Shown: piece by piece, positions 45,502-64,000 of the stretch
Position numbering within the stretch: the first letter of the stretch is position 1
How the letters are laid out: every line of letters begins with the position of its first letter
Notes under the pieces: generated by a model
Database searches by the model: none
The model's input: only the letters and a program-made list of their open reading frames with translations
What the model was told of the DNA's origin: nothing
Program-made: the position numbers and the translations under genes
Source: an uncultured Gammaproteobacteria bacterium
GTDB taxonomy: Bacteria; Patescibacteriota; Microgenomatia; UBA8517
Direction of reading: 5' to 3'
Length of the DNA stretch: 64,000 nucleotides
Assembly (NCBI GenBank): GCA_964587425.1
Contig: CAZPLB010000003.1
Coordinates: forward strand, 60,763-124,762

Positions 45502-45538
45502 ACTTGACATTCAATAAGCAAAGCTTCAATATTCAAAT

Positions 45539-46168: not shown

Positions 46169-46171
46169 TTT

Positions 46172-46477: not shown

Positions 46478-46494
46478 AGTGGTATATTAAAACC

Positions 46495-46725: not shown

Positions 46726-46752
46726 GATTACTTCCAGTTTCAAAAATAATCT

Positions 46753-47571: not shown

Positions 47572-47652
47572 GTATACGATTATATACTTTTTGGAACATC
47601 TTATAGAGCAACTCTGATTGACCTGTAATCTTTTCTGTCCTAAAATACAATC

Positions 47653-48018: not shown

Positions 48019-48027
48019 CATATTCCC

Positions 48028-48423: not shown

Positions 48424-48424
48424 T

Positions 48425-48796
48425 ATGTTAAATTTTAATTCAGTATTGCTGTCTTCAGAAAACTACAAAGTTCTCGCTGACTTCTACAAAAAAGTATTCC
48501 AAAAGGAACCAGAAATGGCAGAAGAAGGCTATACAGGTTTTTTAGTTGGCAGTTGTTTCTTAAGTATTGGTGCTCATGACAAAATTCATGGCAAAAACAC
48601 CAACCCAGACAGAATCCTCCTTAATTTTGAAACAGATGATGTCAAAGGAGAATTTGAAAGAATCAAAGCTTTGGGAGCAGAAGTTGTAAAAGAACCTTAT
48701 TCAATGGGGGAGAACAATGATTTTTGGATAGCAACATTCGCTGATCCAGACAAAAACTACTTCCAGTTAATAACTCCTTGGAAGGCAGAGAAATAA
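48425..48796 (+). CDS. VOC family protein, paralog 3
   Basis: 123 aa; 'VLLSSENYKVLADFYKKVF'. Confidence 0.55.
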   Translation: MLNFNSVLLSSENYKVLADFYKKVFQKEPEMAEEGYTGFLVGSCFLSIGAHDKIHGKNTNPDRILLNFETDDVKGEFERIKALGAEVVKEPYSMGENNDFWIATFADPDKNYFQLITPWKAEK

Positions 48797-48803
48797 TTTC
48801 CAA

Positions 48804-49181
48804 ATGAGAGAAGATTGTCGTAAATCGTCCACAGAACCCCTAAGCTCGGAAGACAGATTAGTACAACTTGTAACTGAACTAGGACTCAAAGAGACTGAAG
48901 CAATGCGAGATTTAAGATCAAGGATTGAAGCCTCAGATATCAAAGCTAGTCTGGGAACATATCAAGATTTGGCAGGTGTGGAGATTGATAAATACAGTGA
49001 AATACCCCAAAGGGAGAATGCACAAATTGGATTAATTGTTATGTCTGCAGTGATTTGCCGTAAACTTGGAGCAGAGGAAGGATACATTGATGCCCTAGAT
49101 GCAGCTATTAATTATGCAGAAGGTATTGGAAGCGAAGACATTGCAAAAGAGTTAAGAGACTTAATCTCCAAAACAAGATAA
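48804..49181 (+). CDS. Hypothetical protein
   Basis: 125-aa ORF with no domain recognised. Confidence 0.4.
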   Translation: MREDCRKSSTEPLSSEDRLVQLVTELGLKETEAMRDLRSRIEASDIKASLGTYQDLAGVEIDKYSEIPQRENAQIGLIVMSAVICRKLGAEEGYIDALDAAINYAEGIGSEDIAKELRDLISKTR

Positions 49182-49390
49182 GCAAAAATACTCTAATTAG
49201 TGTCAGCACAAGCTCCCGTGGAGTTGGAAGGTCGACTTGCCTTCATCGTAATGCTTGCGCATCCCGCAGTAGAGCCTTTCTGCATTTCAACCCCACAGCA
49301 ACTTGCAACTCTGAAGATATTATATATCACTGATGTCAAGGATATGATTCTCCGTTTTTATTTAGGTTAGAAAATGAAGAGAGAGACTTG

Positions 49391-49795
49391 TTAGATACTA
49401 CCCACAATTTTCTCCAAGAACTCGCGATCTTCAGTCACTGCCATTTGTTCGATTGCACCATCAATCTCAAACCAATCATATAGTTCGTCTGCTTTTTGGT
49501 GGAAATCTGGCTTGTCTGAAGTCATTAAAAACATGTGAATATCTTTCAAAACAGGTGTACCATCTCTTTCTGTTGCTTGTTTGGTATATACACCAAGTTT
49601 CTTGACAATTTTTAATTCTGTTAGTCCAGTTTCTTCAGTTACTTCCCTCATTGCAGCTTGTTCAAAAGTTTCACCGTCTTCTACATGGCCTTTTGGAAAC
49701 CCCAAACCTTTTATGTGTGTGTAAATAGTCAACAATATTTTTTTGTTTGGATTAGTCTTAACTACTATTCCTCCTGCTGATATTACCTTTTTCAT
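49391..49795 (-). CDS. NUDIX hydrolase
   Basis: Start taken at the internal Met (49795). Nudix box 'GFPKGHVEDGETFEQAAMREVTEETGL' (GX5EX7REUXEEXGU). Confidence 0.7.
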   Translation of the reverse strand: MKKVISAGGIVVKTNPNKKILLTIYTHIKGLGFPKGHVEDGETFEQAAMREVTEETGLTELKIVKKLGVYTKQATERDGTPVLKDIHMFLMTSDKPDFHQKADELYDWFEIDGAIEQMAVTEDREFLEKIVGSI

Positions 49796-49825
49796 TTGTT
49801 TGTAATTATAATACACTAAAGCGAA

Positions 49826-50338
49826 ATGACTAACCCAACACAAACAATTGACTGGAAAGGGGATAAGTTTGTAGTTGAATGGATAAAAACTAATTCTCTT
49901 AAAGGTATGACTCCAATTAATCAGGTGTATGGTGTTTGCTTTAATGACAAAGACGAGATCTTGATTGCCAGAAAAGAAGGCAGAGGATACTGGATAGTTC
50001 CAGGAGGACATCCAGAGAAGAATGAAACTACAGAGGAAACTTTAGAACGTGAAATGATTGAGGAAGCTGATGTAAAGATTAAAAACATCAAAGTTCTTGG
50101 AGCACAAAAAGTATATCCAGAAGGAAAACCAAAAGAATATTTTTACCAAGTAAGATGTATTTGTGAAGTTGATAAAATTCTACCTCAAACCCCAGACCCA
50201 GATGATAATAAAAACTGGGAGAGAAAGTTTGTACCAACAGATAAAATAACTAAATTTGTTAAATGGGGGGTAATTGGAAATGCAATGTTCAAAGATGCAA
50301 TTAAACTTCATGATTTATCTCTGGAAGTGTTAAAATAG
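49826..50338 (+). CDS. NUDIX hydrolase (second, divergent)
   Basis: 170 aa; Nudix box 'GGHPEKNETTEETLEREMIEEADV'. Confidence 0.7.
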   Translation: MTNPTQTIDWKGDKFVVEWIKTNSLKGMTPINQVYGVCFNDKDEILIARKEGRGYWIVPGGHPEKNETTEETLEREMIEEADVKIKNIKVLGAQKVYPEGKPKEYFYQVRCICEVDKILPQTPDPDDNKNWERKFVPTDKITKFVKWGVIGNAMFKDAIKLHDLSLEVLK

Positions 50339-50342
50339 CTTC

Positions 50343-50927
50343 ATGGATGTTTTTGAATACAAAATAAAATTGGCAGAAGAAATAATAGAGGAACGAGAGT
50401 TTGTGAATAATAAATATCTATCTTTAAAGGTGGAAACTATAAAACAGTTTCGTGATCTAATTATTCAATTCGTTATAATATCTTCAGGTATAATTGGCTT
50501 TACCTTACCGGTTTTTGACAAAACACAACTAGTAAAAAATAAAACATTTTTAATTGGTGGTCTAGCGGAATTATTAATCATTGTTTTATTTGGATTTTAC
50601 TATTTAAAAAATATTCTTGAAAAGGAAAATGATTCGCTAGAAAAAGACAGTAAAGCATTTAACGAATATCTCGATAAAAAAAGAGATGCTAAAATAGAAT
50701 TTATAAAAAGTTTAAATGGCCACACCAAATCTGATGCATTTAAAATTTACGAGGAAGAAAACCACCAAGCACTTATCGTATTAAATAACAAAGTAAAAAC
50801 CCGACCTTCACAAAAAGATTATGTTCTAGACTTGGTATTTATTGCTTTCTTTCTCGGCCTCGCTTTAATTGTTTTATCTCTAACAGATTTTAATTTTTAT
50901 TTTCTATTAAAAATATTTAATCTATGA
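50343..50927 (+). CDS. Hypothetical membrane protein
   Basis: 194 aa, ~3 TM helices; no domain recognised. Confidence 0.45.
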   Translation: MDVFEYKIKLAEEIIEEREFVNNKYLSLKVETIKQFRDLIIQFVIISSGIIGFTLPVFDKTQLVKNKTFLIGGLAELLIIVLFGFYYLKNILEKENDSLEKDSKAFNEYLDKKRDAKIEFIKSLNGHTKSDAFKIYEEENHQALIVLNNKVKTRPSQKDYVLDLVFIAFFLGLALIVLSLTDFNFYFLLKIFNL

Positions 50928-51919
50928 ATCTGAAAGTAGGTATAGTAGGTCTCCCAAATGTAGGAAAGTCCACTCTCTTTAATGCACTTCTAAAAAGACA
51001 AGTTGCATATGTAGCAAACTTTCCATTTGCTACAGTTGAACCAAATGTTGGCATTGTTCCAGTTCCTGACAATCGTCTTCAAAAACTATCTGAAGCAGTT
51101 AAAACTTCTGAAAATACACCGGATCTTCCTCCAGAAGTTCCAGCTACTGTAGAGTTTGTAGATATTGCAGGAATAATTAAAGGAGCAAGTAAGGGTGAAG
51201 GATTGGGAAATAAATTTCTGAGCCACATTAGAGAAGTTGATGCCATCTGCTATGTTCTTCGTGGTTTTAGTGACCCAGACATTATTAAAGAGGGAAGTAC
51301 TGACCCAAAGTCTGATTTTGAAATATTAAAAACAGAACTTGACCTAGCTGACTTTGAAACAGTTGAAAAACACAAAACAAAAAAGAACCAAACACAAGAA
51401 GAACTACCATTATTTAGTAAAAAACCATTCCTTGTTGTAATTAATGTTGATGAAAATGATTTAAAAGATGCAACCAAAATCGAAGTAGAGTATGCTTCAA
51501 AACTTGGAATTCACACCCACCAGGTTATAGCAATCTCTGCCAAAATTGAATCCGAACTCTCAGATCTCACCGAAGGTGATGGAAAAAAATATCTTGAAGA
51601 CCTTGGGGTAAAAGAATCAGGGTTAGAGCGGCTCATCAAAAAAGCATTTGAAACTCTTGGATTAATTACATTTCTAACAGCGGGCGTTAAAGAAGTACGT
51701 GCATGGACCATTCCTGTAGGAATAGATGCTCAAAATGCAGCTGGTGTTATTCACACTGACTTCATTAAAAAATTCATAAAAGCAGATGTTGTTGACTATA
51801 AAGATTTTGTTGAACTGGAAGGGTGGAAAAATTGTCGTGAAAAAGGCAAAGTAAGAAGTGAAGGTCGTGACTATATTATGAAAGACGGAGATGTTGTAGA
51901 GTTCAAGATTGGGAGCTGA
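50924..51919 (+). CDS. ychF: Ribosome-binding ATPase YchF/Ola1 (short form)
   Basis: 331 aa; '[18 protein letters not shown]', '[13 protein letters not shown]', C-terminal TGS domain. Confidence 0.85.
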
Positions 51920-52505
51920 AGAAAGACATAATTTGTTTTTCTTGATCTGCAGTTAAATTAGTTGAAACACCTTCTTTCTCATAAAAACCCAACCCACCTT
52001 CCTTCCTTGTCAAATCTCCTTTTATACTAATCTTTTCTACACCCTCGTCCTTAAGCAGAAGTCTACCTAGATTGTATAAAAATTTACCAACACCTCTTCC
52101 TCTAAATTTAGACCCAACAGAAAACCCATCAACATCTCCCTTAAATGAGTTACTAATCATAGCAATATGTTCTGGTAATTCTTTGTCAGAATTATCCTCA
52201 ATGGAAGTTAGAAGATTAATATAAAGAAAAGCAGTTTCCGGTTTTTGTTCAGTCACTCTAAAATCAATATGGCCAATTGGTATCATGGCATTATTTTCCT
52301 TTGTATAAACCACAAAGAAATGATCTTTTCCTACAATTCTGCCACTTGAGAGAGCGGGGGTTTCTATGCGACAAAGGAACATGTTCCCATTTAAGGGAAC
52401 CAGGGGAGAATATCTAACCTTACCATTTTGTTCTTTAAGGCTAATTTGCTCAATAATTCCAGAATCGACAATATTCTCCATAGCTAGAAAAAAGTATAAC
52501 ACCAT
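51903..52505 (-). CDS. GNAT-family N-acetyltransferase
   Basis: Motif A 'FRGRGVGKFLYN', motif B 'GFYEKEG'; start may be the internal Met at 52481. Confidence 0.6.
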   Translation of the reverse strand: MVLYFFLAMENIVDSGIIEQISLKEQNGKVRYSPLVPLNGNMFLCRIETPALSSGRIVGKDHFFVVYTKENNAMIPIGHIDFRVTEQKPETAFLYINLLTSIEDNSDKELPEHIAMISNSFKGDVDGFSVGSKFRGRGVGKFLYNLGRLLLKDEGVEKISIKGDLTRKEGGLGFYEKEGVSTNLTADQEKQIMSFFSSQS

Positions 52506-52523
52506 GCTATACTTTCCGTACTT

Positions 52524-52805
52524 ATGAATAAATACGAACTAACCATAGTCCTAGATGGCAAGGCAACTGCTGCCAAAAAGAAGTCAGTTACTGAAAAGCT
52601 TGAAAAGATGATTAAAGCCCTGAAGGGGAATGTTGTTAAGGTTAAAGACTGGGGAATAAAAGACTTGTACTATGAAATCAAAAAGTCTGAAACTGGCGCA
52701 TTTTTAATTTTTGAACTAGAATTGGAAGGCCAAGGAGCCAAAACAATTAATGATAAATTGAGGCTAGAAGAAGAAGTAATCAGATATTTATTAATTAGAA
52801 AGTAA
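52524..52805 (+). CDS. rpsF: 30S ribosomal protein S6
   Basis: 93 aa; 'YELTIVLDGK' S6 N-terminus; rpsF-ssb-rpsR synteny. Confidence 0.8.
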   Translation: MNKYELTIVLDGKATAAKKKSVTEKLEKMIKALKGNVVKVKDWGIKDLYYEIKKSETGAFLIFELELEGQGAKTINDKLRLEEEVIRYLLIRK

Positions 52806-53305
52806 TGGCAAGAAGTTTAAATAAAGTTATGCTAATTGGGAACCTGACTCGGGATCCTGAGTTAAGGTACACCCCCCAGGGAACTGGTGTAATTACTTTT
52901 AGTATTGCAACCAATAGACAGTGGAAGACAGAGAGTGGAGATCAGAAAGACGAAGCAGAATTTCATAGAATTGTAGCTTGGGACAAGTTAGCTGAAATTT
53001 GTGCAAAGATGCTTTTCAAGGGGACAAGATGTTACGTTGAAGGAAGACTGCAAACAAGAAGTTGGCAGGCACAGGATGGAGCACAGAAGCAGACAACTGA
53101 GATAGTAATTTCAGATATGATTGTCCTTGACTCAAAAAGACAAGGCGGAGATGAAATTAATGTTCCAGAGGATATGGGTGAAGAGAAAGTAGAGTCAAAA
53201 ACAAAGGAAGAGAAACCAGAAGTAAAAGAAACCAAAAAGCCAGTTAAGGAGAAAAAAGAGGAAGAACCAAAAGATTTAAACGTTGAAGAGGATATTCCTT
53301 TCTAA
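52805..53305 (+). CDS. ssb: Single-stranded DNA-binding protein
   Basis: 166 aa; OB fold 'NKVMLIGNLTRDPELRYTPQG'; acidic tail ending 'EEDIPF'. Confidence 0.9.
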   Translation: MARSLNKVMLIGNLTRDPELRYTPQGTGVITFSIATNRQWKTESGDQKDEAEFHRIVAWDKLAEICAKMLFKGTRCYVEGRLQTRSWQAQDGAQKQTTEIVISDMIVLDSKRQGGDEINVPEDMGEEKVESKTKEEKPEVKETKKPVKEKKEEEPKDLNVEEDIPF

Positions 53306-53315
53306 ATCTAAATAT

Positions 53316-53555
53316 ATGATGAAAAAGAAAATAGTTAAAAAAGAAGTAAAGCTAAATGCCCATTGCCCATTCTGTATTAACAGAACAGATCCAAATTATT
53401 TGGAAGTAGATGAATTAAAGAAATTAGTCTCAGACAGAGGCAGAATCTTGTCTCGCGGCCGTTCTGGACTTTGTTCAAAACACCAGAAAAAGTTAGCAAT
53501 AGCAGTTAAAAGAGCAAGACATTTGGGACTTCTGCCTTTCAAGGGCGGGTTCTAA
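53316..53555 (+). CDS. rpsR: 30S ribosomal protein S18
   Basis: Start at the ATG at 53316 to avoid overlap with ssb; 'CPFC...DPNYLEVDELKKLVSDRGRILSRGRSGLCSKHQKKLAIAVKRARHLGLLPF'. Confidence 0.85.
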   Translation: MMKKKIVKKEVKLNAHCPFCINRTDPNYLEVDELKKLVSDRGRILSRGRSGLCSKHQKKLAIAVKRARHLGLLPFKGGF

Positions 53556-53574
53556 AGCTCTTGAGAATTTATTC

Positions 53575-54810
53575 ATGAAATTTAAACTTGCCACAGTCAG
53601 GAAGATTTTTTTTGTTGCAATTTTTGCCTCATTGGTTTTTCTCTCCGGTTACTCAGTTGGTAAGGCAGGTTTCGTAGCTGAGCTCGCAAACTTCCCAAGA
53701 GTCCATATAACAAGAATTACTCCAGTTAAAGATTTAGACTTCGCCTTGTTTTGGAAAGTATGGGACACTATCAATAATTCCTACTACGACAAATCAAAAG
53801 TGAAAAAGGGAGATATGGTGTACGGTGCCATTAGAGGAATGGTGGCATCCTTAGGTGATCCATACACTCTTTTCCTAACCCCATCAGACAACAAAGTCTC
53901 AAATGAAGACTTACAAGGGAATTTTAGTGGAGTAGGGATTCAAATTGGGTTCAAAGGAACACAGTTAGTGGTAATTGCCCCTCTTCCAGAGTCCCCAGCA
54001 GAGAAAGCAGGAGTAAAGGCAGGAGACCTAATAATGGGAATAAAAGACACATCAAAAGGTGTTGATATTGGTACAGCAAATATTAATCTTCAGGAAGCAG
54101 TCCAACATATCAGAGGCCAAAAGGGTACAAAGGTAACACTTACTCTCATGCGCGAAGGAAGCGACAAGCCAATAGTTGTAGATTTAGTAAGAGAACAGAT
54201 AAATGTTCCCAGCGTCACATTAAAATACACCGGAAAAAATAATGAAATTGCCCACCTTTCAATTTTGAAGTTTGGTGCAGAAACCCCAGGTGAATGGCAA
54301 AAAAGCGTCAACGAGATAGCAGCAAAAGGAGATAGTATTAAAGGGATAGTTCTTGATTTGAGAAATAACCCAGGAGGATACCTCCAAGATGCAGTTGATA
54401 TTGCAGGAGAATTTCTAGAAGCAAATTCAGTTGCAGTAATCCAGGCAACAGTAGACACGCAAATTCCATTGAAAACAGACCGTGAGGGAAGATTCATTAA
54501 TGCAAAAGTAGTAGTTCTTGTAAACGGTGGATCTGCTTCAGCTAGTGAAATTTTGGCAGGAGCGCTTCGTGACAACAAAAAAATAAAACTAATTGGTGAA
54601 AAAACATTTGGCAAAGGAACTATTCAGGAACCCCAGGAATTAGATGGTGGGGCAGGACTCCACATTACTATTGCCAAATGGCTAACCCCAAATGGAACCT
54701 GGGTCCACGACAAAGGCCTAGAGCCCGATGACAAAGTAGAAGACAAAGCAGATACAGAAGAAGATGAGCAGCTTCTTGAAGCAGTTAAAGTACTCTCAGG
54801 AAGTTTTTGA
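53575..54810 (+). CDS. ctpA: Carboxyl-terminal processing protease (S41) with PDZ domain
   Basis: 411 aa; signal anchor; PDZ 'GVGIQIG', S41 catalytic region 'VVLVNGGSASASEILAGAL' and Lys region. Confidence 0.8.
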   Translation: MKFKLATVRKIFFVAIFASLVFLSGYSVGKAGFVAELANFPRVHITRITPVKDLDFALFWKVWDTINNSYYDKSKVKKGDMVYGAIRGMVASLGDPYTLFLTPSDNKVSNEDLQGNFSGVGIQIGFKGTQLVVIAPLPESPAEKAGVKAGDLIMGIKDTSKGVDIGTANINLQEAVQHIRGQKGTKVTLTLMREGSDKPIVVDLVREQINVPSVTLKYTGKNNEIAHLSILKFGAETPGEWQKSVNEIAAKGDSIKGIVLDLRNNPGGYLQDAVDIAGEFLEANSVAVIQATVDTQIPLKTDREGRFINAKVVVLVNGGSASASEILAGALRDNKKIKLIGEKTFGKGTIQEPQELDGGAGLHITIAKWLTPNGTWVHDKGLEPDDKVEDKADTEEDEQLLEAVKVLSGSF

Positions 54811-54825
54811 GAGAGACAAAGAATA

Positions 54826-55272
54826 ATGGCAGATCCTCGACAGACAGACGAATTTAAAATGTACGAAGAGCACCTTGGCCAACCAGAAAAAGTTGCAAAT
54901 TTTCTCGAAAGCACTGGGATCAAGAAATACCCTTCTGCCAAAGATATTTTATCTTGGCTATCAACTTCAAAGACAAACCCTTTAATTACAAAAAATGTTC
55001 TTAAATTTATCTGGAGTGAAGTAGAGGAAAGAAGAATTGTAACTATTTCGCAAGAGGATGAGAACACTCTGTTGCATGTTGAAATCACTGGACCAAAAGG
55101 TAACGATCCAAACGCAACATGGCAAAAAACATTAGATGAAAAAGAACCAATAGGGGAAATAACTTACGACAAGGAAGAAAATAAATTATTAGTCCAAGGA
55201 AAAAAACGATTATTTACAATTGCTCCAGATGGACAGATAGGAACAACTTGGGAACAGCAACCCAAGAATTAA
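54826..55272 (+). CDS. Hypothetical protein
   Basis: 148-aa ORF with no domain recognised. Confidence 0.45.
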   Translation: MADPRQTDEFKMYEEHLGQPEKVANFLESTGIKKYPSAKDILSWLSTSKTNPLITKNVLKFIWSEVEERRIVTISQEDENTLLHVEITGPKGNDPNATWQKTLDEKEPIGEITYDKEENKLLVQGKKRLFTIAPDGQIGTTWEQQPKN

Positions 55273-55982
55273 ATAATTAAATTCTTTGTCGCAGCCAGGA
55301 TTTTATCTATCTCTCCATCAATAATTTTTTCCAAGTTTCCAAAACTCTTTCCAATTCTGTGATCTGTCACCCTATCCTGTGCAAAATTATATGTTCTAAT
55401 CTTCTCACTTCTCATCCCTCGTCCTATTGAACTTCTGTACCCAGCAACTGTTCTCATTTTTTCTTCCTCTTGGCGTTCAAAAAGTTTGGCTCTTAAAATG
55501 TCCATTGCAATGTTCCTGTTTTGTTCCTGAAACCGCTCTGTCTGTGCTGTCACTACTATCCCACTAGGACGGTGGGTGAGCCTTACTGCAGTCGAAACTT
55601 TATTTACGTTTTGTCCTCCATGCCCTCCGGACCTGAAAAACTGTATATCAAGATCGTCAGGTCGAATTACAACATCGCTTTCTTTCACCTCGGGAAGAAC
55701 CGCAACGGTTGCAGTCGAAGTGTGAACCCTACCCCTTTTTTCAGTTTTTGGAACTCTCTGAACCCGGTGTACTCCGCTTTCATTTTTCAGTAAATCAAAG
55801 ACTCCAACACCAGTTATCCTCAGAACATTTTCATCAACGACCTCAGTTTTGAGGTTTTGCTTTACAAAATATCTGCTGTACATTCGGAAAAGATCATTGG
55901 CCCAAATTTTTGCTTCATCGCCTCCAGTTGCTCCTCTTACTTCCAAGTATGCAGTTTGGTTAGTGGGGAATTGATTGTCCAT
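55269..55982 (-). CDS. prfA: Class-I peptide chain release factor, RF1-type (PxT = PKT), lacking N-terminal domain 1
   Basis: 237 aa beginning at the equivalent of RF1 residue ~115 ('YLEVRGATGGDEAKIWANDLFRMYSRY'); 'RVQRVPKTEKRGRVHTS' codon-recognition loop; GGQ 'RSGGHGGQNVNK'. Only 20 nt separate it from the upstream rpmE. Confidence 0.75.
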   Translation of the reverse strand: MDNQFPTNQTAYLEVRGATGGDEAKIWANDLFRMYSRYFVKQNLKTEVVDENVLRITGVGVFDLLKNESGVHRVQRVPKTEKRGRVHTSTATVAVLPEVKESDVVIRPDDLDIQFFRSGGHGGQNVNKVSTAVRLTHRPSGIVVTAQTERFQEQNRNIAMDILRAKLFERQEEEKMRTVAGYRSSIGRGMRSEKIRTYNFAQDRVTDHRIGKSFGNLEKIIDGEIDKILAATKNLII

Positions 55983-56002
55983 AGTGTTGCAGAGTGAAAG
56001 GA

Positions 56003-56302
56003 TTACCCGCGAAGTTGGGAAAGCGTTTCTGGTCTTGCAAGCTCTTCTTGTAGTTTCTTTTCGCGCTTTAACTTCCTCTTTTCAGTCTTTGAAACAGTTT
56101 TTTTGACATTAGACATACGAGCTTTGAATGCGTCAACCCGTCCTGCTGTATCAATGAACTTCATCTGACCAGTATAGAAAGGATGACAGTTGGAGCATAT
56201 TTCAACCTTGATCTCAGGCACAGTTGCACCTATTGTAAATGCATTACCACAGGCACAAGTTACCTTTGCCTGATACCATTTTGGATGTGTTGCAGTTTTC
56301 AT
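56003..56302 (-). CDS. rpmE: 50S ribosomal protein L31 with Lys-rich C-terminal extension
   Basis: 99 aa; zinc ribbon 'CACGN...[10 protein letters not shown]'. Confidence 0.85.
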
Positions 56303-56310
56303 GTGTGAGC

Positions 56311-57225
56311 CTATTTTACCACACGCCTCTTGTATTCGGCAATGGCTATGCCAATAACCACAATTATTGAGCCAATTATGAAAGAGGTCGTCATCTTTTC
56401 ACCAAGTAGGACTACAGCAAAAGGAATAGTGAAAACTGTCTGCAAATAGGTGAATAGTGCAGCCTCCGATACTTCAATTGTTTTCTGCCCCTTTTGGTAA
56501 AGGAAGTACCCAAGTGCCCCAGAGAAAACTGCCATGTAAACTACTCCTAAATGAGATATAAGTGAAGCATTTGAAATCATACTAAAAATTTTTCCAAATG
56601 ACCCTGTTTCAACCAAAGCCATCGGAATCATTGTTACAAATCCAACCACAAATCCGGCTGTTGTCAAAAGTATTGGGTCAGCGTTTTTTCTCAACGATTT
56701 CTTAGACAAAACAACAAATCCAATCCAGGCAAAGTTTGCAAGAACAATTAAAAAATTACCCAGAATATTCGAATACCCATCTCCTTTGGTTTCAAAAAAG
56801 GGAATGACAGTTAGGACAAAGGTGCCAATAATAGTAACTAATATTCCAACCTTTTCTTGTTTTGTAATGTGTTCCTTCAAGAAAATTACTCCTGCCAAAA
56901 CTACAAGCATTGGGCCTGTTCCTGTAATTATTGCCTGGTCAATAACTGTAGTTAGTTTTGTTCCATAAAAAAGAAGACTCAAGTTTAATGTGGTTCCAAA
57001 AAATGAAAGAAGAATTAAATTAAATATCTCACTCCTATTTCTGGGCAGCCGAACTTTTTTATAGATAGCAAAAGGCACAAGTAAGATGACTATTAGGAAA
57101 AATCTATACAAAAGAAACACAAAAGGGGAGAGTTCATTAAGAGTAACCTTAACCACAACCCCCGCAAATCCCCAGATCAAAGCAGCAAGGGTTAAATAAA
57201 TGTAGGCAGTAAGTCTTCGCGACAT
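56311..57225 (-). CDS. EamA/DMT-family transporter
   Basis: 304 aa, 10 TM, duplicated EamA halves. Confidence 0.7.
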
Positions 57226-58097
57226 TAAATTAATTCAACAAGTCTATCAATTCCAAAAGAGAAGCCGACAGCAGGGATATCTCGTCCGGCAAACATGCCA
57301 ATCAGTTTGTCATATCTGCCTCCTCCTCCAATAGATTGCTCCTCTGGCTTCCCAGTTGGTTTCAATTCAAGAATTGTAGAGGTGTAGTAGTCAAGACCTC
57401 GGGCCAGTGTTGGATCAAAGAAAAAGTCATTTCCTTCTTTCAGACCATACTCTTTTTCAAGAACTTCGAATATATCTTTCAAATTTTCGGTTGGCTTCAA
57501 TCCCTCAACAAAGTCAATTAATTTTTTCTCAGTATTTTCCTTTCCAATTTTATATATCTTATCTATTATTCGAATATCAGCTACTGACAGTCCTTCAAAA
57601 TTTTCCCTGTCATTAATAGCCATTTGAGCTTTCTCTAAACCAATTTTTCTGGCAGATTTCAAGGCAGCTGCAATTACTTTTGCATCCATCTTCAAATCCT
57701 TTGATCCAACTATATCTGCATCAAATTGTGTAAATTCACGATATCTTCCTTTCTGTGTATTTTCACCCCTAAAGACTTGTCCTATTTGATAGCGTGCAAA
57801 GGAACCCTTTGCAATCAACTCTAAATTATTGGCAATGTACCGAGCCAGCGGCACAGTCAAGTCGTATCGAAGTGCCAAATCTCGTCCACCTCGATCAGTG
57901 AATTCATATATAAGTTTCTCCTCTTCACCATATTTCCCTTTTAAAGTTTCTGCAAACTCAATTGTAGGAGTCTCAAGAGGGGAGAAATCAAACTCTTCCA
58001 ATACATCAGCAATCAAGCTTATTGTCTCACGCCTTTTCTTGGCAAGCGATGAATCAATGTCTCTAAATCCTTTTGGTGTAACTGGACCCTTTTGCAT
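57225..58097 (-). CDS. hisS: Histidyl-tRNA synthetase catalytic core (no anticodon-binding domain)
   Basis: Start at the Met at 58097 ('MQKGPVTPKGFRD' is the HisRS N-terminus); motif 2 'FRGENTQKGRYREFTQFDADIVG', motif 3 'GGGGRYDKLIGMFAG...AVGFSFGIDRL'. The gene ends at 57225 where the EamA gene begins, leaving no room for a C-terminal domain. Confidence 0.7.
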   Translation of the reverse strand: MQKGPVTPKGFRDIDSSLAKKRRETISLIADVLEEFDFSPLETPTIEFAETLKGKYGEEEKLIYEFTDRGGRDLALRYDLTVPLARYIANNLELIAKGSFARYQIGQVFRGENTQKGRYREFTQFDADIVGSKDLKMDAKVIAAALKSARKIGLEKAQMAINDRENFEGLSVADIRIIDKIYKIGKENTEKKLIDFVEGLKPTENLKDIFEVLEKEYGLKEGNDFFFDPTLARGLDYYTSTILELKPTGKPEEQSIGGGGRYDKLIGMFAGRDIPAVGFSFGIDRLVELI

Positions 58098-58166
58098 ATC
58101 TAGTGTGAATAATAACAGGAATGTGAAGTTTTTAGAAGGTTCTTTACAAACCAGCAAACAATATCT

Positions 58167-58619
58167 CTAAACCGTGAGAACCAATTCTTCCTCACCCACT
58201 CGAAGCACTGGCATATCGTCTACAGTTGGTTTGTCTAAGTTTATTATGAAATACAATCTTCCATCCATATCAAGAACCTGAAAAAAATAATTGGGGTAAT
58301 CATTATTCTTAAAAAACCACTGTCCCTTCACCTTGGGGTACCATTTAATATCTTGAACACTGAATTGTCGCTTCATCCTTTCAAGCTCTTTGGTTTGGGT
58401 AATGCGTTCAAAATTTCCCGCCCCATTAACACCTCGAACTACTACATCTGATTTTATCCTTTTTCTTAACGGTAGTGATTCCTCCATTGTAAAACGATGT
58501 GCCCCGGCACCATATTCGTGACCCTTTTCGACACATGAAAGAATTTTCTCATCATTCAATGACTCGCGAATTACATGCACCACTTCACGAACGTAAATTT
58601 TGTCGGTTTCCTTACTCAT
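58167..58619 (-). CDS. Hypothetical protein
   Basis: 150-aa ORF with no domain recognised. Confidence 0.45.
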   Translation of the reverse strand: MSKETDKIYVREVVHVIRESLNDEKILSCVEKGHEYGAGAHRFTMEESLPLRKRIKSDVVVRGVNGAGNFERITQTKELERMKRQFSVQDIKWYPKVKGQWFFKNNDYPNYFFQVLDMDGRLYFIINLDKPTVDDMPVLRVGEEELVLTV

Positions 58620-58640
58620 ATATTCCTATCTTATACTTAT

Positions 58641-59651
58641 TTATTTTGAAGTAACTATCCAAATATTTCTAGCAGTTAATTTATTCTCTGTTACTTCCCC
58701 AGCTACTATCACCAAACTATCATTTGTTAAATTAACAAACTTAGAAAGTACTGTCTTGCCGTTCTGTAGTTTGAAAACTGACACTCCGTCAGTAGAAAGA
58801 GAAGCTGCAAAAGTTTGTCCAGATTTCGTTTTCAAGTTAAATGTATTTTTGGTTAAGTCACTAACTTTGCCAATTAATATTTTTCTCTTTGAGGCAGTTA
58901 AAGTGTCAGTAACTAATACCCTAGAGGATTCCAGTACGCCATTTGCATTCTTTGTTCCCATAGCAACAACAAAGTCTCCAATAGCAAGATCATTCTTTTT
59001 AATTACTTTTGAAGTAGTAGCTGTTGATTTAATGAAAACAGTGGTTGTTGGATTAATGGAAATTTGCTGTATCTCTCCTTTTAAGTTTTTAATTTGAATA
59101 GTATCATCTGGCAAATCTGTAACTATTCCAAGGTAACTTGTTCCTCTCTGTGTCACTTTGTCTAATTTCTCCTGCACCTTCTTCCTCACCGCATCTTCAG
59201 TTGCCGTACTTATTGAAGCGTCAGTAGTTGTTTCTTTTTGAAACTCAGTTGAAAAAACAAGAAGTAAATCTGTTTCAATTGAATTTTCGCTCATATCAAA
59301 TGAAGCAAGTTTGACTTGGTTTGCCCCACCACTCAGTTCCAATGGAACTTCAAAAGTTCCAGAGTCTGTTGCAACTTGAAGTTCATCATCTTCTTCCCCT
59401 GAAACCACCACAAACGATTGCGGTTTAACTAGCCCCGAAATATTAGTAGGGGATGAGGTTATCACTTCAAAATTGTCTGGTTTTGCAATAGCAATCTTTA
59501 GCTGTGTTGTTTTGTCTTGTACTGTTTGTTTTGAAGGTTCGCTGTTTGGAGTCTTACTGTTCAAGTAGCTATTTGCCCTCCAAACTCCAAAAGCAACAAG
59601 AAGACCAAACAAACTTCCCGCCAAAATTGCCAAGAAAACTTCCTTGTTCAT
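58641..59651 (-). CDS. Membrane-anchored surface protein with repeated beta-rich segments
   Basis: 336 aa; N-terminal TM 'VFLAILAGSLFGLLVAFGVW', S/T-rich extracytoplasmic region. Confidence 0.5.
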   Translation of the reverse strand: MNKEVFLAILAGSLFGLLVAFGVWRANSYLNSKTPNSEPSKQTVQDKTTQLKIAIAKPDNFEVITSSPTNISGLVKPQSFVVVSGEEDDELQVATDSGTFEVPLELSGGANQVKLASFDMSENSIETDLLLVFSTEFQKETTTDASISTATEDAVRKKVQEKLDKVTQRGTSYLGIVTDLPDDTIQIKNLKGEIQQISINPTTTVFIKSTATTSKVIKKNDLAIGDFVVAMGTKNANGVLESSRVLVTDTLTASKRKILIGKVSDLTKNTFNLKTKSGQTFAASLSTDGVSVFKLQNGKTVLSKFVNLTNDSLVIVAGEVTENKLTARNIWIVTSK

Positions 59652-59722
59652 ATATTAGGTACCAAATACTATATGAAATTGGCCTTGAAAGTCAAGGCAA
59701 ACCATGTTAATTTGAGAGACAA

Positions 59723-60373
59723 ATGGAAATAACATATCTGGGTCAGTCCTCCTTTAAGATTAAAACAAAGAATTCTATAGTCATTACTGATCCATTTGAT
59801 CCAAAGATGGTAGGACTAAAGTTTGAAAAGCAGGAAGCAAACATTGTGACTGTCTCCCACCACCATAATGACCACGACAATCTTGGAGCGATCGATGGAA
59901 CCATGAAAGTTATAGATGGCCCTGGGGAATATGACATTGCAGACGTTGCAGTACGAGGTTTTAAAACATATCACGATAATTCAGAAGGCAAAGAAAGAGG
60001 AAAAAACACAATTTATGTTATCGAAGCAGACGGAGTAAAGGTATTGCATCTTGGAGACTTGGGTCACAAATTATCAGAAGGTCTGCTTAAGGAATTGGGG
60101 AGTATTGATGTCGTCATAGTTCCAGTTGGGGGAGTGTACACACTAAATGGGAAAGAGGCAGTTGAGGTAGTAAGGCAAATCGAACCAACCATCACTATTC
60201 CAATGCATTTTAAAGTAGATGGTATGGCTCCAGACCTTGCCAAAGATATGGAAACTGTAGATCCATTCTTAAGTGAATTAGGAGGAAGAGTTGAAAGAAT
60301 GCAAAAATTATCACTCAAAGCTGCTGATTTAACGAGCGAGGAGGCACATGTCGTCGTCCTTGAAAAGAAGTAG
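59723..60373 (+). CDS. MBL-fold metal-dependent hydrolase (UPF0173/UlaG-like)
   Basis: 216 aa; 'VSHHHNDHD' metal-binding motif, 'HLGDLGH'. Confidence 0.7.
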   Translation: MEITYLGQSSFKIKTKNSIVITDPFDPKMVGLKFEKQEANIVTVSHHHNDHDNLGAIDGTMKVIDGPGEYDIADVAVRGFKTYHDNSEGKERGKNTIYVIEADGVKVLHLGDLGHKLSEGLLKELGSIDVVIVPVGGVYTLNGKEAVEVVRQIEPTITIPMHFKVDGMAPDLAKDMETVDPFLSELGGRVERMQKLSLKAADLTSEEAHVVVLEKK

Positions 60374-62978
60374 TTCTCCAAAAGTCCCGCCCCATTCAAC
60401 AGAAGCTGAAATTTCAGTTTTAGGTGCACTTCTTTTGGACAAAGACGCAATAGTAAATGTAGCAGAATTCCTGGAGGGAAGGCATTTCTATGATGAAAGG
60501 CACCAAGAAATATATGAAACCATTCTTGTGCTTTACGAAGAAAGATCTCCGATTGATATCTTAACTGTCTCAGATAGACTCAAGAAAAGAAAAACCTTGA
60601 AGAAAGTAGGAGGATCTTCATATCTCTCGGATTTAGTAAATAAAGTTCCAACCTCAGCCCACATTGAGCATTATGGAAAAATAGTGAAAGATGCCAGTAC
60701 AAAAAGATCTCTTTTAAACGCAGCCATGCAGCTAGTTGATTTTTCCTTTGATGAAGGGCTTGGTGCAAACGAACTGCTGGACAAAGCAGAAGCAGAAATT
60801 TTCTCCCTCACCCAAAAACATCTCTCCCAAAGTTTTACTCCAGTCAGAGCCGCTCTTGCTGATTCATTTGATAGGCTAGATGAACTACATAAACTAGATT
60901 CCAACCTTAGAGGGGTTCCAACTGGTTTTGCAGATCTAGACAATCTTCTTGCAGGACTCCAAAAATCAAACCTCATAATCCTTGCAGCAAGGCCAGGTGT
61001 TGGGAAAACTTCGCTTGCCTTGAATATTGGCCAGCACTTGGCAGTCACCCATAAACGCCCTGTCGGTTTCTTCTCACTTGAAATGAGCAAGGAGGAATTG
61101 GTGGACAGACTTCTTGTGGCCCAAGCAGATATTGATGCTTGGAAATTAAAAACTGGAAAGTTAAACAACGACGATTTCACAGCCCTTAGTAACGCAATGG
61201 GGGAGTTGGCAGAAGCACCTTTTTACATAGACGACACCCCAGCCCTTTCCATTCTTGAAATGAGAACAAAGGCAAGAAGACTGCAGGTGGAGTATGGAAT
61301 TGATCTTCTCATAGTTGATTACCTACAGCTTGCAAGAAGTAGAAACCTTGAGAATAGAGTTCAAGAGGTTTCAGAAATCTCACAAGGCTTAAAAAACTTA
61401 GCCAGGGAACTAAAGATTCCAGTCCTAACTCTTTCCCAGCTTTCAAGAGCTGTAGAACAAAGAGGAACCAAAAAACCTCAGCTTGCAGATCTTCGTGAAT
61501 CAGGATGTTTGCTGGGGGAAACTTTGATACTCAACGCAGAAACTGGTGAGCGTAAAACAATTGAATCTCTAGTAGGGGAAGAAAACATCAAAATACTTGC
61601 AATGGACGAAAATCTGAAAATTATACCAGCTGAAGTAAGTAAGATTTTTAAAAGTGGAAAGAAAATGGTCTACAAAATGACGCTAAAAAGCGGCAGAGTA
61701 ATAAACGCCTCTGGAAATCATCCATTCCTAAAGGTTCAGGATTGGGAAAGACTTGATAATTTGAATATTGGCGACAGAATCGCTGCCCCTAGATTAATCA
61801 ATAATGAAACCAAGAATGCGGTTGAACTATCCGACAACAAATTAATTCTCTTAGCTCATTTAATAGGGGATGGATGCTATGTTAAAAGGCAACCCCTGCA
61901 CTACACAAATTCTGAAATAAAGCTGATTGAAATAGTTAAAGACACAGCCCTTTCTGAATTCAAAATAAAACCTCGAATAGTAAAACAAGAAAATTGGTAT
62001 CACCTATATCTTCCATCAATTGAAAAATTGGCTCGTGGAAAAAGAAACCCAATTGTTAGGTGGTTGGATGAAGAATTGAGTATTTATGGCCAACATTCCA
62101 GACAAAAAGAAATCCCATCAATTGTTATGACACAACCAAAGGAAAAACTAGCTGTATTCCTCAAAAATTTATGGGCAACAGATGGTTGTATCCACCTAAA
62201 TTCAAATCTCCAAGGACCAAAAGTAAGAATTTACTACGCTTCAGGCAGTTGGAAGCTTGCAGAGGGAGTTGCCCATCTTCTTCTTAGATTTGGAATAATA
62301 TCAACAATTAGAGCAGGCCACAAGGCAGGCTATGAGGTTGTTTGGCAGGTTCATGTACAAGGAAAAGTTGATCAATTAAATTTCCTGCAAAAAATTGGCT
62401 GTGTTGGGAAGAAAGAAGATTTTTGCAAGAAAGCGATCACTATTCTTCAAAATATCAAAGAAAATCCAAACAATGATGTAATTCCAAAAGAAATATGGAA
62501 TTACATTGAAAAACTAAGAATAGAAAGAGGGCTATCTACTCGTCAGTTCCATCATGAAATGGGTTGGGCATATAGTGGAACACAAAGATTAAAAAATGGA
62601 GTAAGCAGAAAAAGACTAGTGGAAATTTTAAAAGTACTTGAAAACAAAGAACTCGAGTCTTTTGCACAGTCAGATATCTATTGGGATGAGGTTAAAAGTG
62701 TCGAAAAGATAGGAATCAAAGATGTATATGACATGACTGTTCCCATATATGCAAATTTCATCGCCAATGATATTGTAGTTCACAACAGTATAGAGCAAGA
62801 TGCCGACGTAGTAATGTTTTTGTGGAGAGAGGATGAAGAGAAATTGGAAGACATGATTCTTGAAATTTCAAAACATAGAAATGGACCCCTTGGACAAGTG
62901 AAGCTTCACTTCAAGGGTGATAGAATAAGGTTCTATGGACGTGAAACAAAACACCAGCAAAGCCCGCAAGGAAAGTAG
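60348..62978 (+). CDS. dnaB: Replicative DNA helicase DnaB, interrupted by an in-frame intein
   Basis: 876-aa ORF; N-terminal 'PPHSTEAEISVLGALLL'; Walker A 'ARPGVGKTSLAL'; 'LSQLSRAVEQR'; the C-terminal 'SIEQDADVVMFLWRED' follows a 427-aa insertion. The extein is ~449 aa. Confidence 0.9.
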   Translation: MSSSLKRSSSPKVPPHSTEAEISVLGALLLDKDAIVNVAEFLEGRHFYDERHQEIYETILVLYEERSPIDILTVSDRLKKRKTLKKVGGSSYLSDLVNKVPTSAHIEHYGKIVKDASTKRSLLNAAMQLVDFSFDEGLGANELLDKAEAEIFSLTQKHLSQSFTPVRAALADSFDRLDELHKLDSNLRGVPTGFADLDNLLAGLQKSNLIILAARPGVGKTSLALNIGQHLAVTHKRPVGFFSLEMSKEELVDRLLVAQADIDAWKLKTGKLNNDDFTALSNAMGELAEAPFYIDDTPALSILEMRTKARRLQVEYGIDLLIVDYLQLARSRNLENRVQEVSEISQGLKNLARELKIPVLTLSQLSRAVEQRGTKKPQLADLRESGCLLGETLILNAETGERKTIESLVGEENIKILAMDENLKIIPAEVSKIFKSGKKMVYKMTLKSGRVINASGNHPFLKVQDWERLDNLNIGDRIAAPRLINNETKNAVELSDNKLILLAHLIGDGCYVKRQPLHYTNSEIKLIEIVKDTALSEFKIKPRIVKQENWYHLYLPSIEKLARGKRNPIVRWLDEELSIYGQHSRQKEIPSIVMTQPKEKLAVFLKNLWATDGCIHLNSNLQGPKVRIYYASGSWKLAEGVAHLLLRFGIISTIRAGHKAGYEVVWQVHVQGKVDQLNFLQKIGCVGKKEDFCKKAITILQNIKENPNNDVIPKEIWNYIEKLRIERGLSTRQFHHEMGWAYSGTQRLKNGVSRKRLVEILKVLENKELESFAQSDIYWDEVKSVEKIGIKDVYDMTVPIYANFIANDIVVHNSIEQDADVVMFLWREDEEKLEDMILEISKHRNGPLGQVKLHFKGDRIRFYGRETKHQQSPQGK
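61506..62786 (+). mobile_element. DnaB intein (427 aa) with LAGLIDADG homing-endonuclease domain
   Basis: Begins with Cys after '...DLRESG' (block A 'CLLGETLIL'); block B 'SGNHPF'; LAGLIDADG motifs 'LILLAHLIGDGCYV' and 'LAVFLKNLWATDGCIHL'; ends 'VYDMTVPIYANFIANDIVVHN' followed by Ser of the C-extein. This is the canonical DnaB insertion site. Confidence 0.85.
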
Positions 62979-62981
62979 ATT

Positions 62982-63191
62982 ATGATAGAAAGACCAAACG
63001 AAATACAGAAAAAAAGTAGAGAAGAGCCCAAAACTTTAAGAGATGAAGTAGATTTTTATTCACATCGGCGTGGAGGTGTAAAAGCTTATGGAACTAGTGA
63101 TTTTGGAATAATCTATGAAATTACTGAATTAAGAATAAAACCAACTCCAGAATTGAAACAGCGACCCGAAAGTAATAATATTAATGAATGA
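62982..63191 (+). CDS. Small hypothetical protein
   Basis: 69-aa ORF immediately after dnaB. Confidence 0.35.
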   Translation: MIERPNEIQKKSREEPKTLRDEVDFYSHRRGGVKAYGTSDFGIIYEITELRIKPTPELKQRPESNNINE

Positions 63192-63610
63192 TTGGTCTTA
63201 CTCCACTTGCTCTCCTTTTTACTCTAGGAGCTATTGGCATCTCAGAAACTGTTTACTTGATCAAGAAAAGACATGCTGAAGCAGCTCCAGTATGTTTTAT
63301 TGGTGCAGATTGCCACACAGTTCTTGAAAGCAAATACAATACAATTCTTGGAATCCATAATGATATTTTAGGGTTATTATTCTATATTTTTATTTCCATC
63401 ATGAGTGCCCTAATCCTTATTGAAGCTTTCCCTGTTGAACTTCTAAAACTAATTGATGTAATTGCAATAATATTGGGAGCAGTCATGTCAGTTTACTTCA
63501 CATACCTTCAAAAATTTGTAATCAAAGCTTGGTGTTTTTGGTGCTTGATGAGTGCCTTAACAGTTTTTACAATGACAGTAATAGTAATTCTTGCAGGATT
63601 CACAATATGA
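63188..63610 (+). CDS. VKOR-family (vitamin K epoxide reductase-like) thiol-disulfide oxidoreductase membrane protein
   Basis: 140 aa; loop cysteines 'VCFIGADC', TM CXXC 'WCFWC', 4 TM helices. Confidence 0.55.
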   Translation: MIGLTPLALLFTLGAIGISETVYLIKKRHAEAAPVCFIGADCHTVLESKYNTILGIHNDILGLLFYIFISIMSALILIEAFPVELLKLIDVIAIILGAVMSVYFTYLQKFVIKAWCFWCLMSALTVFTMTVIVILAGFTI

Positions 63611-63978
63611 ATAAAACTAGTTTTCATATATTAAGAGTTGGAATAGCAATAACTTTTCTTTGGATTGGAGTTCTAATCCTCAAAAACCCAGTTGCATGGA
63701 GCGGTTACATTCAAGGTTGGGTGGTAAACCTACTCTCTGTACCCCCAGAACAGGTGATGATAATGATTGCAATCCAAGACCTTGCAATTGGAGCATTCCT
63801 GCTTATAGATATGTTTACCTGGTTTTTTGCAGCTGCTGCGGTACTTCACCTTGCAACTGTGTTAATTGTTTCTGGAATAAACGATGTAACAATTCGTGAT
63901 GTTGGACTGCTTTCAGCAAGCCTTGCGTTGTTTGCTCAAACCCTTCCTCAATGGGTTATCTCAAAATTCAAACATTAA
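63607..63978 (+). CDS. DoxX-like small membrane protein
   Basis: 123 aa from the ATG at 63607 (overlapping the VKOR stop, ATGA); 3-4 TM helices 'ILRVGIAITFLWIGVLIL'. Confidence 0.45.
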   Translation: MNKTSFHILRVGIAITFLWIGVLILKNPVAWSGYIQGWVVNLLSVPPEQVMIMIAIQDLAIGAFLLIDMFTWFFAAAAVLHLATVLIVSGINDVTIRDVGLLSASLALFAQTLPQWVISKFKH

Positions 63979-64000
63979 GCATTTGTGCCGAGGGAGAGAA

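Follow-up and report, generated by a model that had tools for sequence, protein, structure and literature searches.

Introduction

Histidyl-tRNA synthetase (HisRS) is the textbook case of an aminoacyl-tRNA synthetase (aaRS) whose tRNA is identified almost entirely by its acceptor end (G-1:C73), and all characterised HisRS enzymes, to our knowledge, keep an anticodon-binding domain (ABD). The canonical class IIa enzyme (TIGR00442) combines a catalytic core, the HisA and HisB signatures, a helical insertion domain, an RGGR loop and a motif 2 loop with a hinge and an HGTP-type ABD of roughly 105 aa. As an identity element for HisRS the anticodon is weak, and microhelices are substrates (PMC4357726). 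The engineered Ncat HisRS of E. coli, a catalytic domain without the ABD, still aminoacylates tRNA-His (Augustine and Francklyn 1997, cited in PMC4357726), because identity rests on G-1:C73; its efficiency is about 0.6% of wild type, approximately 170-fold below the full enzyme (PMC4357726), and loss of the ABD thus lowers the efficiency of the E. coli enzyme by more than 99%. HisRS urzymes are likewise catalytic domains lacking the ABD (PMC3060492). Both Ncat HisRS and the urzymes are laboratory constructs, whereas the short HisRS described here is natural and has been under purifying selection for a long time across a bacterial clade.

Natural aaRS homologues without an ABD usually hold other roles. 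EpmA/PoxA, derived from LysRS, and GluQRS/YadB, derived from GluRS, are natural catalytic cores that stand alone, but they are extra paralogs beside a full-length synthetase, unlike the short hisS gene, which occupies the resident synthetase locus. HisZ (TIGR00443) also has a HisRS-like catalytic-domain fold and no ABD. Furthermore, fissed isoforms exist for AlaRS, PheRS, PylRS and GlyRS (PMC11580382). A natural ABD-less HisRS was not described in the literature that we searched on HisRS together with CPR, Patescibacteria, Microgenomates or Woesebacteria, including PMC5370408, PMC11580382 and PMC7143001. The gene considered here lies in a 64-kb stretch of DNA (the window), and it shares with canonical HisRS all the elements listed above except the hinge and the ABD.

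Gene Layout and Family Assignment

The HisRS open reading frame runs on the minus strand from an ATG at 58097 to a TAA at 57225-57227, and the next gene starts where it terminates, as an earlier note on this DNA had stated; the sequence confirms this in the form of a TAATG overlap (Table 1), at the point that corresponds to the start of the hinge and ABD in full-length orthologs. The 290-aa product ends five residues past the motif 3 arginine (GFSFGIDRLVELI, followed by the stop codon).

Table 1. Positions of the short hisS gene, its motifs and the adjoining gene in the window.
Feature	Positions	Strand	Residues and remarks
EamA-family transporter gene, downstream	56311..57225	(-)	Pfam EamA 1.5e-47; synteny table
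TAATG stop/start overlap	57223..57227	(-)	final A of the HisRS TAA is the A of the EamA ATG
ABD-less HisRS CDS	57228..58097	(-)	290 aa; ORF list, sequence, Pfam, hisS TIGR00442, AF2 model
HisB signature GGGGRYD and motif 3 PAVGFSFGIDR	57243..57329	(-)	residues 257-285
HisA histidine-binding signature LARGLDYYT	57381..57407	(-)	residues 231-239
Helical insertion domain with IDKxYKxG motif	57423..57608	(-)	about residues 164-225
Motif 2 strands and loop	57708..57800	(-)	residues 100-130, containing FRGENTQKGRYREFTQFDADIV; sequence, consensus, invariants
RGGR tetrapeptide	57882..57893	(-)	R69-G70-G71-R72; G70 and R72 invariant, R69 and G71 at least 90% conserved in the family
Class II motif 1 region, dimer-interface helix and strand	57954..58001	(-)	residues 33-48, LEEFDFSPLETPTIEF

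Pfam recognises tRNA-synt_His (PF13393) in this protein at E=1e-38 and gives no match to HGTP_anticodon (PF03129). The NCBIfam hisS model TIGR00442 scores it at 276.2 bits, with the best stretch covering profile positions 2-183 of 406; this is below the curated equivalog cutoff of 286.75 bits, a shortfall explained by the ABD third of the model, which has no counterpart in the protein. Sequence matches in the PDB are led by HisRS chains (1e-45 to 1e-41), and HisZ chains follow far behind (1e-22 to 1e-14). Among solved structures, 6NHI (Elizabethkingia) and human cytoplasmic HisRS (4G84/4PHC) come closest, and the short HisRS is of the archaeal/eukaryote-like sequence type. An AF2 model of the protein (pLDDT 81, pTM 0.82) finds HisRS chains as its top structural matches, with TM-scores relative to the query of 0.70-0.76. 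Pfam, TIGR00442 and the end of the open reading frame agree with the view, taken in the earlier note, of a HisRS-like catalytic core alone without its C-terminal ABD. The motif strings cited there (PKGFRD, FRGENTQKGRYREFTQFD and GGGGRYD...AVGF) are all present, but PKGFRD is the conserved HisRS N-terminal signature and not class II motif 1.

Catalytic and tRNA-Contact Motifs

The 290-aa product contains a class II catalytic core in which motifs 1, 2 and 3 are complete. Invariance was scored over 40 family members, and residue roles were transferred from the T. thermophilus HisRS-tRNA structure (PMC4357726). The motif 1 region has L33, E34, E42, T43, P44, E47 and F48 as invariant residues, and we place motif 1 proper around DFSPLETPTIE, which would include the invariant P44. 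The RGGR tetrapeptide corresponds to 71'RGGR74' of the T. thermophilus enzyme, which forms the cross-subunit G-1 pocket (PMC4357726). In motif 2, E112, Q115, K116, R118 and R120 are equivalent to Glu114, Gln117, Lys118, Arg120 and Arg122 of T. thermophilus, and N113 stands in place of Arg115, a residue that contacts G-1 and G1 there (PMC4357726); the consensus of the short-form clade over this region is FRGENPQxGRxREFTQ.

The helical insertion domain, which is the acceptor-stem clamp of HisRS (PMC4357726), is confidently modelled (pLDDT 89-98 for the helices at 164-217) and carries the invariants I178, D179, K180, Y182, K183 and G185. The HisA signature, which like HisB is specific to HisRS and binds histidine, is kept in both the short and the full-length groups, with L231, A232, R233, G234, D236, Y237, Y238 and T239 invariant. 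In the HisB signature and motif 3, G257, G259, G260, R261, Y262, D263, G278, F281 and D284 are invariant and R285 is at least 90% conserved. Across the family, RGGR, FRGExxQxGRxREF, LARGLDYYT, GGRYD and PAVGFSFGxDR are all invariant or close to it. Overall, alignment shows that the counterparts of the residues contacting the acceptor end and G-1 in solved HisRS-tRNA complexes are retained.

Distribution, Phylogeny and Synteny of the Short Form

Short HisRS proteins of 286-338 aa were found in 36 genomes from Woesebacteria, Curtissbacteria and part of Daviesbacteria, and at all these loci the open reading frame ends 0-9 residues past GFSFGxDRLxE. Every one of the best 120 database relatives is 286-298 aa long, as are the homologues at 72-86% identity, and therefore the end of the open reading frame is native. 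The genes downstream of short hisS vary between carriers; in the complete genome OZ246419.1 a convergent P-type ATPase gene replaces EamA, and the end point of hisS is unchanged. The earlier note did not foresee that the loss of the ABD is clade-wide and ancient.

The 36 short sequences group as a monophyletic clade (100/100 NJ bootstrap) that is nested within the full-length Microgenomates HisRS of about 400 aa. On clustering at 50%, the whole short family collapses to a single representative (P0121), the remaining close relatives being 390-480 aa long, and in a search of 1.8 billion representatives all close relatives outside the short family carry the ABD. Five of the shorter representatives (P0204, P0187, P0255, P0154 and P0169) were considered as independent ABD-less forms and rejected, as their C-termini are degenerate or cut.

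Carriers of the short and of the full-length gene have a gene order in common, namely DnaB, lactamase_B, hisS, EamA, L31, RF1, S41 protease, S18, SSB, S6 and YchF, such that EamA adjoins hisS of either length. From the hisS start to the EamA start, short-form carriers have about 0.9 kb, against about 1.2 kb in carriers of the full-length gene, and a tRNA-Leu(CAA) gene, where found, mostly lies 3-7 kb upstream of hisS in both groups. Because both forms occupy the same syntenic slot, the short gene is the resident hisS after a clean deletion of approximately 105 codons; judged by position and by the tree, it is the ortholog of full-length hisS in the sister lineages. Constraint on the protein is also strong: HisRS identity between the window and its nearest genomes is 70-77%, which is on par with DnaB (77-81%) and RF1 (63-76%) in the same genomes and above S18 (44-61%) and EamA (37-44%).

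A Proposed Mechanism of Anticodon-Independent Charging

We consider it quite probable that the short gene is an ordinary hisS that underwent an ancient ABD deletion and that its product is the sole, anticodon-blind HisRS of the cell. A clean deletion would have removed the C-terminal hinge and the HGTP-type ABD, and its fixation would date to the ancestor shared by a large Microgenomates subclade that comprises Woesebacteria, Curtissbacteria and part of "Daviesbacteria". As the domain that reads the anticodon is lost, tRNA-His is most likely charged by reading the acceptor end alone.

The short HisRS may work as a homodimer, as the conservation of motif 1 and RGGR suggests, making histidyl-adenylate from histidine and ATP and passing the histidine to A76 of tRNA-His. 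Selection of the tRNA would then depend solely on G-1 and its 5' phosphate, on the discriminator base and on the upper end of the acceptor stem, where G-1 and C73 are assumed for these organisms. The insertion domain, the motif 2 loop (E112, Q115, K116, R118 and R120) and the partner subunit's RGGR loop would together grip the acceptor end, and the GUG anticodon would never be read. This mechanism is in line with the minimal HisRS relying on acceptor stem and G-1 that the earlier note had put forward as one of two options, an option now favoured by the orthology to full-length hisS and by the intact catalytic and G-1/acceptor-contact motifs.

The approximately 170-fold lower efficiency of the E. 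coli fragment would lead one to think that a natural ABD-less enzyme needs compensating changes. The candidate compensation seen is a modestly higher net charge (+1.3 vs -2.2) and no more. It is probable, with somewhat less confidence, that an old lineage of Woesebacteria, Curtissbacteria and their relatives decodes histidine with an anticodon-blind class IIa HisRS in which compensating changes make the bare core sufficient. The ProRS encoded in the window keeps a homologous HGTP_anticodon domain, and hence the loss is specific to the one class IIa enzyme whose tRNA is uniquely marked at the acceptor end.

Alternative Explanations

The short protein could instead be a neofunctionalised paralog, activating histidine for another acceptor or for sensing while a separate full-length HisRS charges tRNA-His. 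This reading, which we regard as unlikely, is suggested by the usual fate of ABD-less homologues outlined above, of which EpmA/PoxA and GluQRS/YadB are parallels, and by the TIGR00442 score under the cutoff. In addition, the search for an ABD or a second hisS covered 10 kb on either side of each gene plus the 64-kb window, a scope that leaves room for a full-length copy farther away. Yet the short gene fills the resident hisS slot and is nested in the sister-lineage clade, so that another copy would imply a further gene acquisition by genomes that measure 0.74-0.92 Mb. The RGGR G-1 pocket and the motif 2 loop, which matter for the binding of tRNA-His alone, are moreover still invariant. No assembly among the 80 from the genome scan contained two HisRS matches, and none of the 47 full-length carriers is labelled Woesebacteria or Curtissbacteria. 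ARAGORN found tRNA-Leu(CAA) and tRNA-Ala alone, and no tRNA-His gene, in the window and most of the fetched loci; an Rfam scan of the window gave zero matches.

A split enzyme, whose ABD would come from a different gene at another site and associate with the catalytic subunit in trans, seems very improbable. The fissed isoforms known for other synthetases (PMC11580382) provide a precedent, and the database holds many short PF03129-only proteins that resemble Microgenomates HisRS ABDs, the listed matches to our ABD profile being fragments of 89-198 aa. None of the 120 proteins listed, however, lay on a contig whose length fits a carrier genome. The same profile, which recovered full-length loci down to about 1e-43, detected no ABD in 640 kb of carrier DNA, where its best match was the window's own ProRS (E=0.08), and a second catalytic domain was likewise absent from these 640 kb. 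The five short ABD-only proteins on the longest contigs were inspected as possible stand-alone ABDs, and all five were rejected as artefacts of full-length genes, produced by contig ends (L087 and L089), 50-N gaps (L086 and L088) or a frameshift-ridden assembly (L085), which we take as weak negative evidence against a stand-alone ABD gene.

The other option of the earlier note, a HisZ-like paralog, that is, a regulatory subunit of ATP phosphoribosyltransferase, is hardly tenable. HisZ likewise has no ABD and the hisZ models match weakly, but TIGR00443 reaches 146.2 bits against a cutoff of 271.65, about half of the hisS score, and PDB HisZ chains rank far below HisRS chains. Motifs 2 and 3 keep their catalytic arginines, the tRNA-contact loops are undamaged, and the gene is an ortholog of full-length hisS. 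Neither hisG nor other his genes were found near short hisS, its syntenic neighbours being DnaB, L31 and RF1, and the protein therefore has no his-operon context.

Finally, removal of the ABD by frameshift, misassembly or recent decay, although such cases do occur in the HisRS family (L085, L086 and L088), has a negligible chance of being correct, and with it the sequencing error masking a longer open reading frame that the earlier note had allowed for is excluded: 36 independent genomes and over 100 protein clusters share the end point, the downstream gene abuts the stop codon, no remnant of ABD-coding sequence was found and conservation is strong.

Implications

Because the TIGR00442 score falls just under the cutoff, pipelines label the short HisRS as "HisS family protein" or "hypothetical", and the gene may be counted as absent from these lineages wherever hisS serves as a marker for completeness estimates or phylogenomics. 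As a case of genome reduction in the CPR translation apparatus, the loss would be a clear one at the level of the domain and not of the gene.

If our reading is correct, the ABD of HisRS is dispensable in vivo, and the natural sequences of this clade could reveal what makes up for its loss. Histidine identity would in that case depend entirely on G-1 and the acceptor stem in these organisms. They would also allow anticodon-independent tRNA identity to be studied in a natural setting, and would provide a scaffold for orthogonal pairs that is ready to use.

Family assignment of the short HisRS

At the hisS locus of the window, an intact, conserved HisRS catalytic core is encoded without the C-terminal anticodon-binding domain (ABD). 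Pfam recognizes tRNA-synt_His (E=1e-38) but no HGTP_anticodon domain in the protein, which ends in GFSFGIDRLVELI*, with the stop five residues past the motif 3 arginine; the last A of this stop is the A of the EamA ATG (TAATG overlap). All of the strings quoted in an earlier note are found in the protein, but PKGFRD, taken there for class II motif 1, is the HisRS N-terminal signature, and we read motif 1 as DFSPLETPTIE, with the family-invariant P44. The HisZ-like paralog that was also considered there can be dismissed, as hisS TIGR00442 is the top NCBIfam model (276.2 bits, just under the equivalog cutoff of 286.75), whereas the best hisZ model, TIGR00443, reaches only 146.2 bits (cutoff 271.65).

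Features of the window and of two related loci with interrupted hisS
Sequence	Feature	Coordinates	Strand	Details
Window	ProRS	19453..20694	plus	413 aa; class II core and HGTP_anticodon only (Pfam)
Window	Release factor	55269..55982	minus	237 aa; start 20 bp past L31
Window	EamA-family transporter, next after hisS	56311..57225	minus	ORF and family match
Window	Short hisS	ATG 58097 to TAA 57225-57227	minus	ORF, 290 aa
Window	ORF directly upstream of hisS	58167..58619	minus	150 aa
Window	dnaB	60348..62978	plus	876 aa versus 436-450 aa in relatives L002, L004, L088
L086 (GCA_964610445.1)	hisS split by N runs	5195..6459		One piece is an ABD-only ORF, 152 aa
L088 (GCA_964516775.1)	hisS split by N runs	about 4060..5324		One piece is an ABD-only ORF, 107 aa

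Distribution and origin of the short form

The best 120 database relatives are 72-86% identical to the window protein and every one has 286-298 aa; where named, their sources are Woesebacteria, Curtissbacteria or 'Patescibacteria group', and their annotations vary between 'HisS family protein', 'Histidine-tRNA ligase' and 'hypothetical protein'. In the complete chromosome OZ246419.1 (810,692 bp), the end point of hisS is identical, though a convergent P-type ATPase gene replaces EamA downstream. The uniform length of the relatives and this same end beside another neighbor rule out an artefact.

In a genome scan limited to one genome per species, 80 loci were obtained, and each match was extended to its stop codon. 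At 33 loci (at least 54% identity), labeled Woesebacteria, Curtissbacteria, some 'Daviesbacteria' and 'Microgenomates', the proteins have 286-338 aa and stop 0-9 residues past GFSFGxDRLxE. The other 47 (at most 53% identity), labeled Woykebacteria, Levybacteria, Roizmanbacteria, other 'Daviesbacteria' and a few Asgard and DPANN archaea, continue 95-121 residues further C-terminally, and a database search with a profile of this extension led to proteins labeled PF03129. The 36 short proteins, from the 33 scan loci, two more loci and the window, group together in a single clade (NJ bootstrap 100/100) that is nested among full-length Microgenomates HisRS, with a Woykebacteria-like group as sister (66/100). 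In an unfiltered search of 1.84 billion protein representatives at 50% identity, the entire short family is a single representative, P0121 (308 aa); all other close relatives have 390-480 aa, except a few with degenerate or cut ends.

Searches by tblastn with the proteins neighboring the window hisS revealed an order common to short and full-length loci, namely DnaB, a lactamase_B-fold protein, a variable ORF, hisS, EamA, L31 and RF1, followed by S41 protease, S18, SSB, S6 and YchF; a tRNA-Leu(CAA) gene, where found, lies mostly 3-7 kb upstream of hisS in both groups. The start of hisS is ~0.9 kb from that of EamA in short-form genomes versus ~1.2 kb in full-length genomes. Therefore, the short gene is the resident hisS minus ~315 bp, and not a paralog inserted elsewhere. 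The window HisRS is 70-77% identical to those of the nearest genomes (DnaB 77-81%, RF1 63-76%, S18 44-61%, EamA 37-44%), and the sequence constraint on it is high.

Judged by sequence alone, the insert in the window's DnaB (from ...RESGCLLGET to ...VVHNS) resembles an intein whose middle part is homing-endonuclease-like. For the ORF directly upstream of hisS, neither Pfam nor tblastn against 84 related loci gave a match, and this ORF appears to be specific to the window organism, not a partner conserved along with the short HisRS.

The non-CPR genomic relatives of Microgenomates HisRS are nearly all archaeal (Asgard Atabeyarchaeia and DPANN, 41-43% identity; loci L072, L073, L081, L083 and L084), the clearest other exception being L082, labeled Calditrichaceae. 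Since human HisRS is also among the best PDB matches, CPR HisRS is of an archaeal/eukaryote-like sequence type; its motif 2 loop is still bacterial-like, Q-K-G-R-Y-R.

Conserved residues and structure

In the Thermus thermophilus HisRS-tRNA-His structure, motif 2 Arg115 and Arg122 hold G-1 together with the loop 71'RGGR74' from the partner subunit, Glu114 binds A76, the contacts to the 3' end are made by Gln117, Lys118 and Arg120, and the acceptor stem is clamped by the insertion domain (PMC4357726). This structure explains the conserved positions of the short HisRS. Invariant or at least 90% conserved among 40 family members are K9 (N-terminal signature), P44 (motif 1), R69-G70-G71-R72 (G-1 pocket), R77, D79 and T81 (RYDLT), R110, E112, Q115, G117, R118, R120, Q124 and D128 (motif 2), I178, D179, K180, Y182, K183 and G185 (insertion domain), L231, A232, R233, G234, D236, Y237 and Y238 (HisA), G259, G260, R261, Y262 and D263 (HisB), and G278, F281, D284 and R285 (motif 3). 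Because the window protein has RGGR and E112-N113-T114-Q115-K116-G117-R118-Y119-R120, only the position of T. thermophilus Arg115 differs (Asn). The AF2 model (pLDDT 81, pTM 0.82) has a complete core and a confident helical insertion domain, and its best structural matches are HisRS of Elizabethkingia, human, Thermoplasma and Trypanosoma, with HisZ lower.

The mean net charge of the catalytic domain is slightly more positive in the short clade (+1.3 versus -2.2), which also has a handful of clade-specific substitutions (e.g., G106, L80 and R23, each for Q). These features are leads on compensation for ABD loss, short of an explanation. A small insertion rich in Lys immediately precedes motif 3 (e.g., ...DKGGTKKETPAVGFSFG) in many of the short-form proteins that lie outside the Woesebacteria group (at L023, L026, L032 and L036, for instance, and in P0121). 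This insertion, absent from the window protein, may be a compensating tRNA contact.

A second hisS or an ABD in trans

The main rival explanation, a second hisS elsewhere in the genome, is unlikely in our view. Profiles of the ABD and the catalytic core detected neither an ABD nor a second catalytic domain in six-frame translations of 640 kb of short-form genomes, including the 64-kb window, the best ABD match being the window's ProRS (E=0.08). None of the 80 scan loci shares its assembly with another HisRS match, and no Woesebacteria- or Curtissbacteria-labeled genome is among the 47 full-length carriers. These results are suggestive, but not conclusive, that there is no second hisS and that the ABD is not supplied in trans.

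When the ABD profile was searched against the protein database, the matches listed were only proteins of 89-198 aa. The five of these on the longest contigs were inspected, and all are parts of full-length genes that were truncated at contig ends (L087, L089), interrupted by 50-N gaps (L086, L088) or broken up in a frameshift-ridden assembly (L085). Other ABD-only short proteins among these matches, some named 'His/Gly/Thr/Pro-type tRNA ligase C-terminal domain-containing protein, partial', might be misread in the same way as stand-alone ABD genes.

Other translation genes of the window

In the window's release factor, the Pfam PCRF match covers only profile positions 100-194 of 194, the RF-1 (GGQ) domain is full, and N-terminal domain 1 is missing; its tripeptide PKT is, by our reading, an RF1-type PxT motif. 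A short release factor (228-241 aa) is also found in the related loci L002, L004, L087 and L089, that of L086 having 342 aa. It seems that this lineage has lost a domain from a second component of its translation machinery. The homologous HGTP_anticodon domain is kept in ProRS, also a class IIa enzyme of this genome, which we read as having no INS editing domain. Neither tRNA genes (ARAGORN) nor Rfam families at the gathering threshold were found in positions 1..64000.

Proposed mode of action

The window protein is orthologous to canonical HisRS and has the same catalytic core, but it is without the ABD, one of the architectural features that define this family; its architecture recalls that of the engineered Ncat fragment of HisRS. 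HisRS depends only weakly on the anticodon as a determinant and accepts microhelices as substrates, and when reduced to its catalytic domain, the E. coli enzyme retains ~0.6% of its efficiency (PMC4357726). We found no account of a natural HisRS that lacks the ABD in the literature searched. We propose that the short HisRS would, as a homodimer, form His-AMP and charge tRNA-His, recognizing it only via G-1 and the 5' phosphate of this nucleotide, together with the discriminator base and acceptor stem. Overall, the short protein is quite probably the sole HisRS of this organism, and one that is blind to the anticodon.
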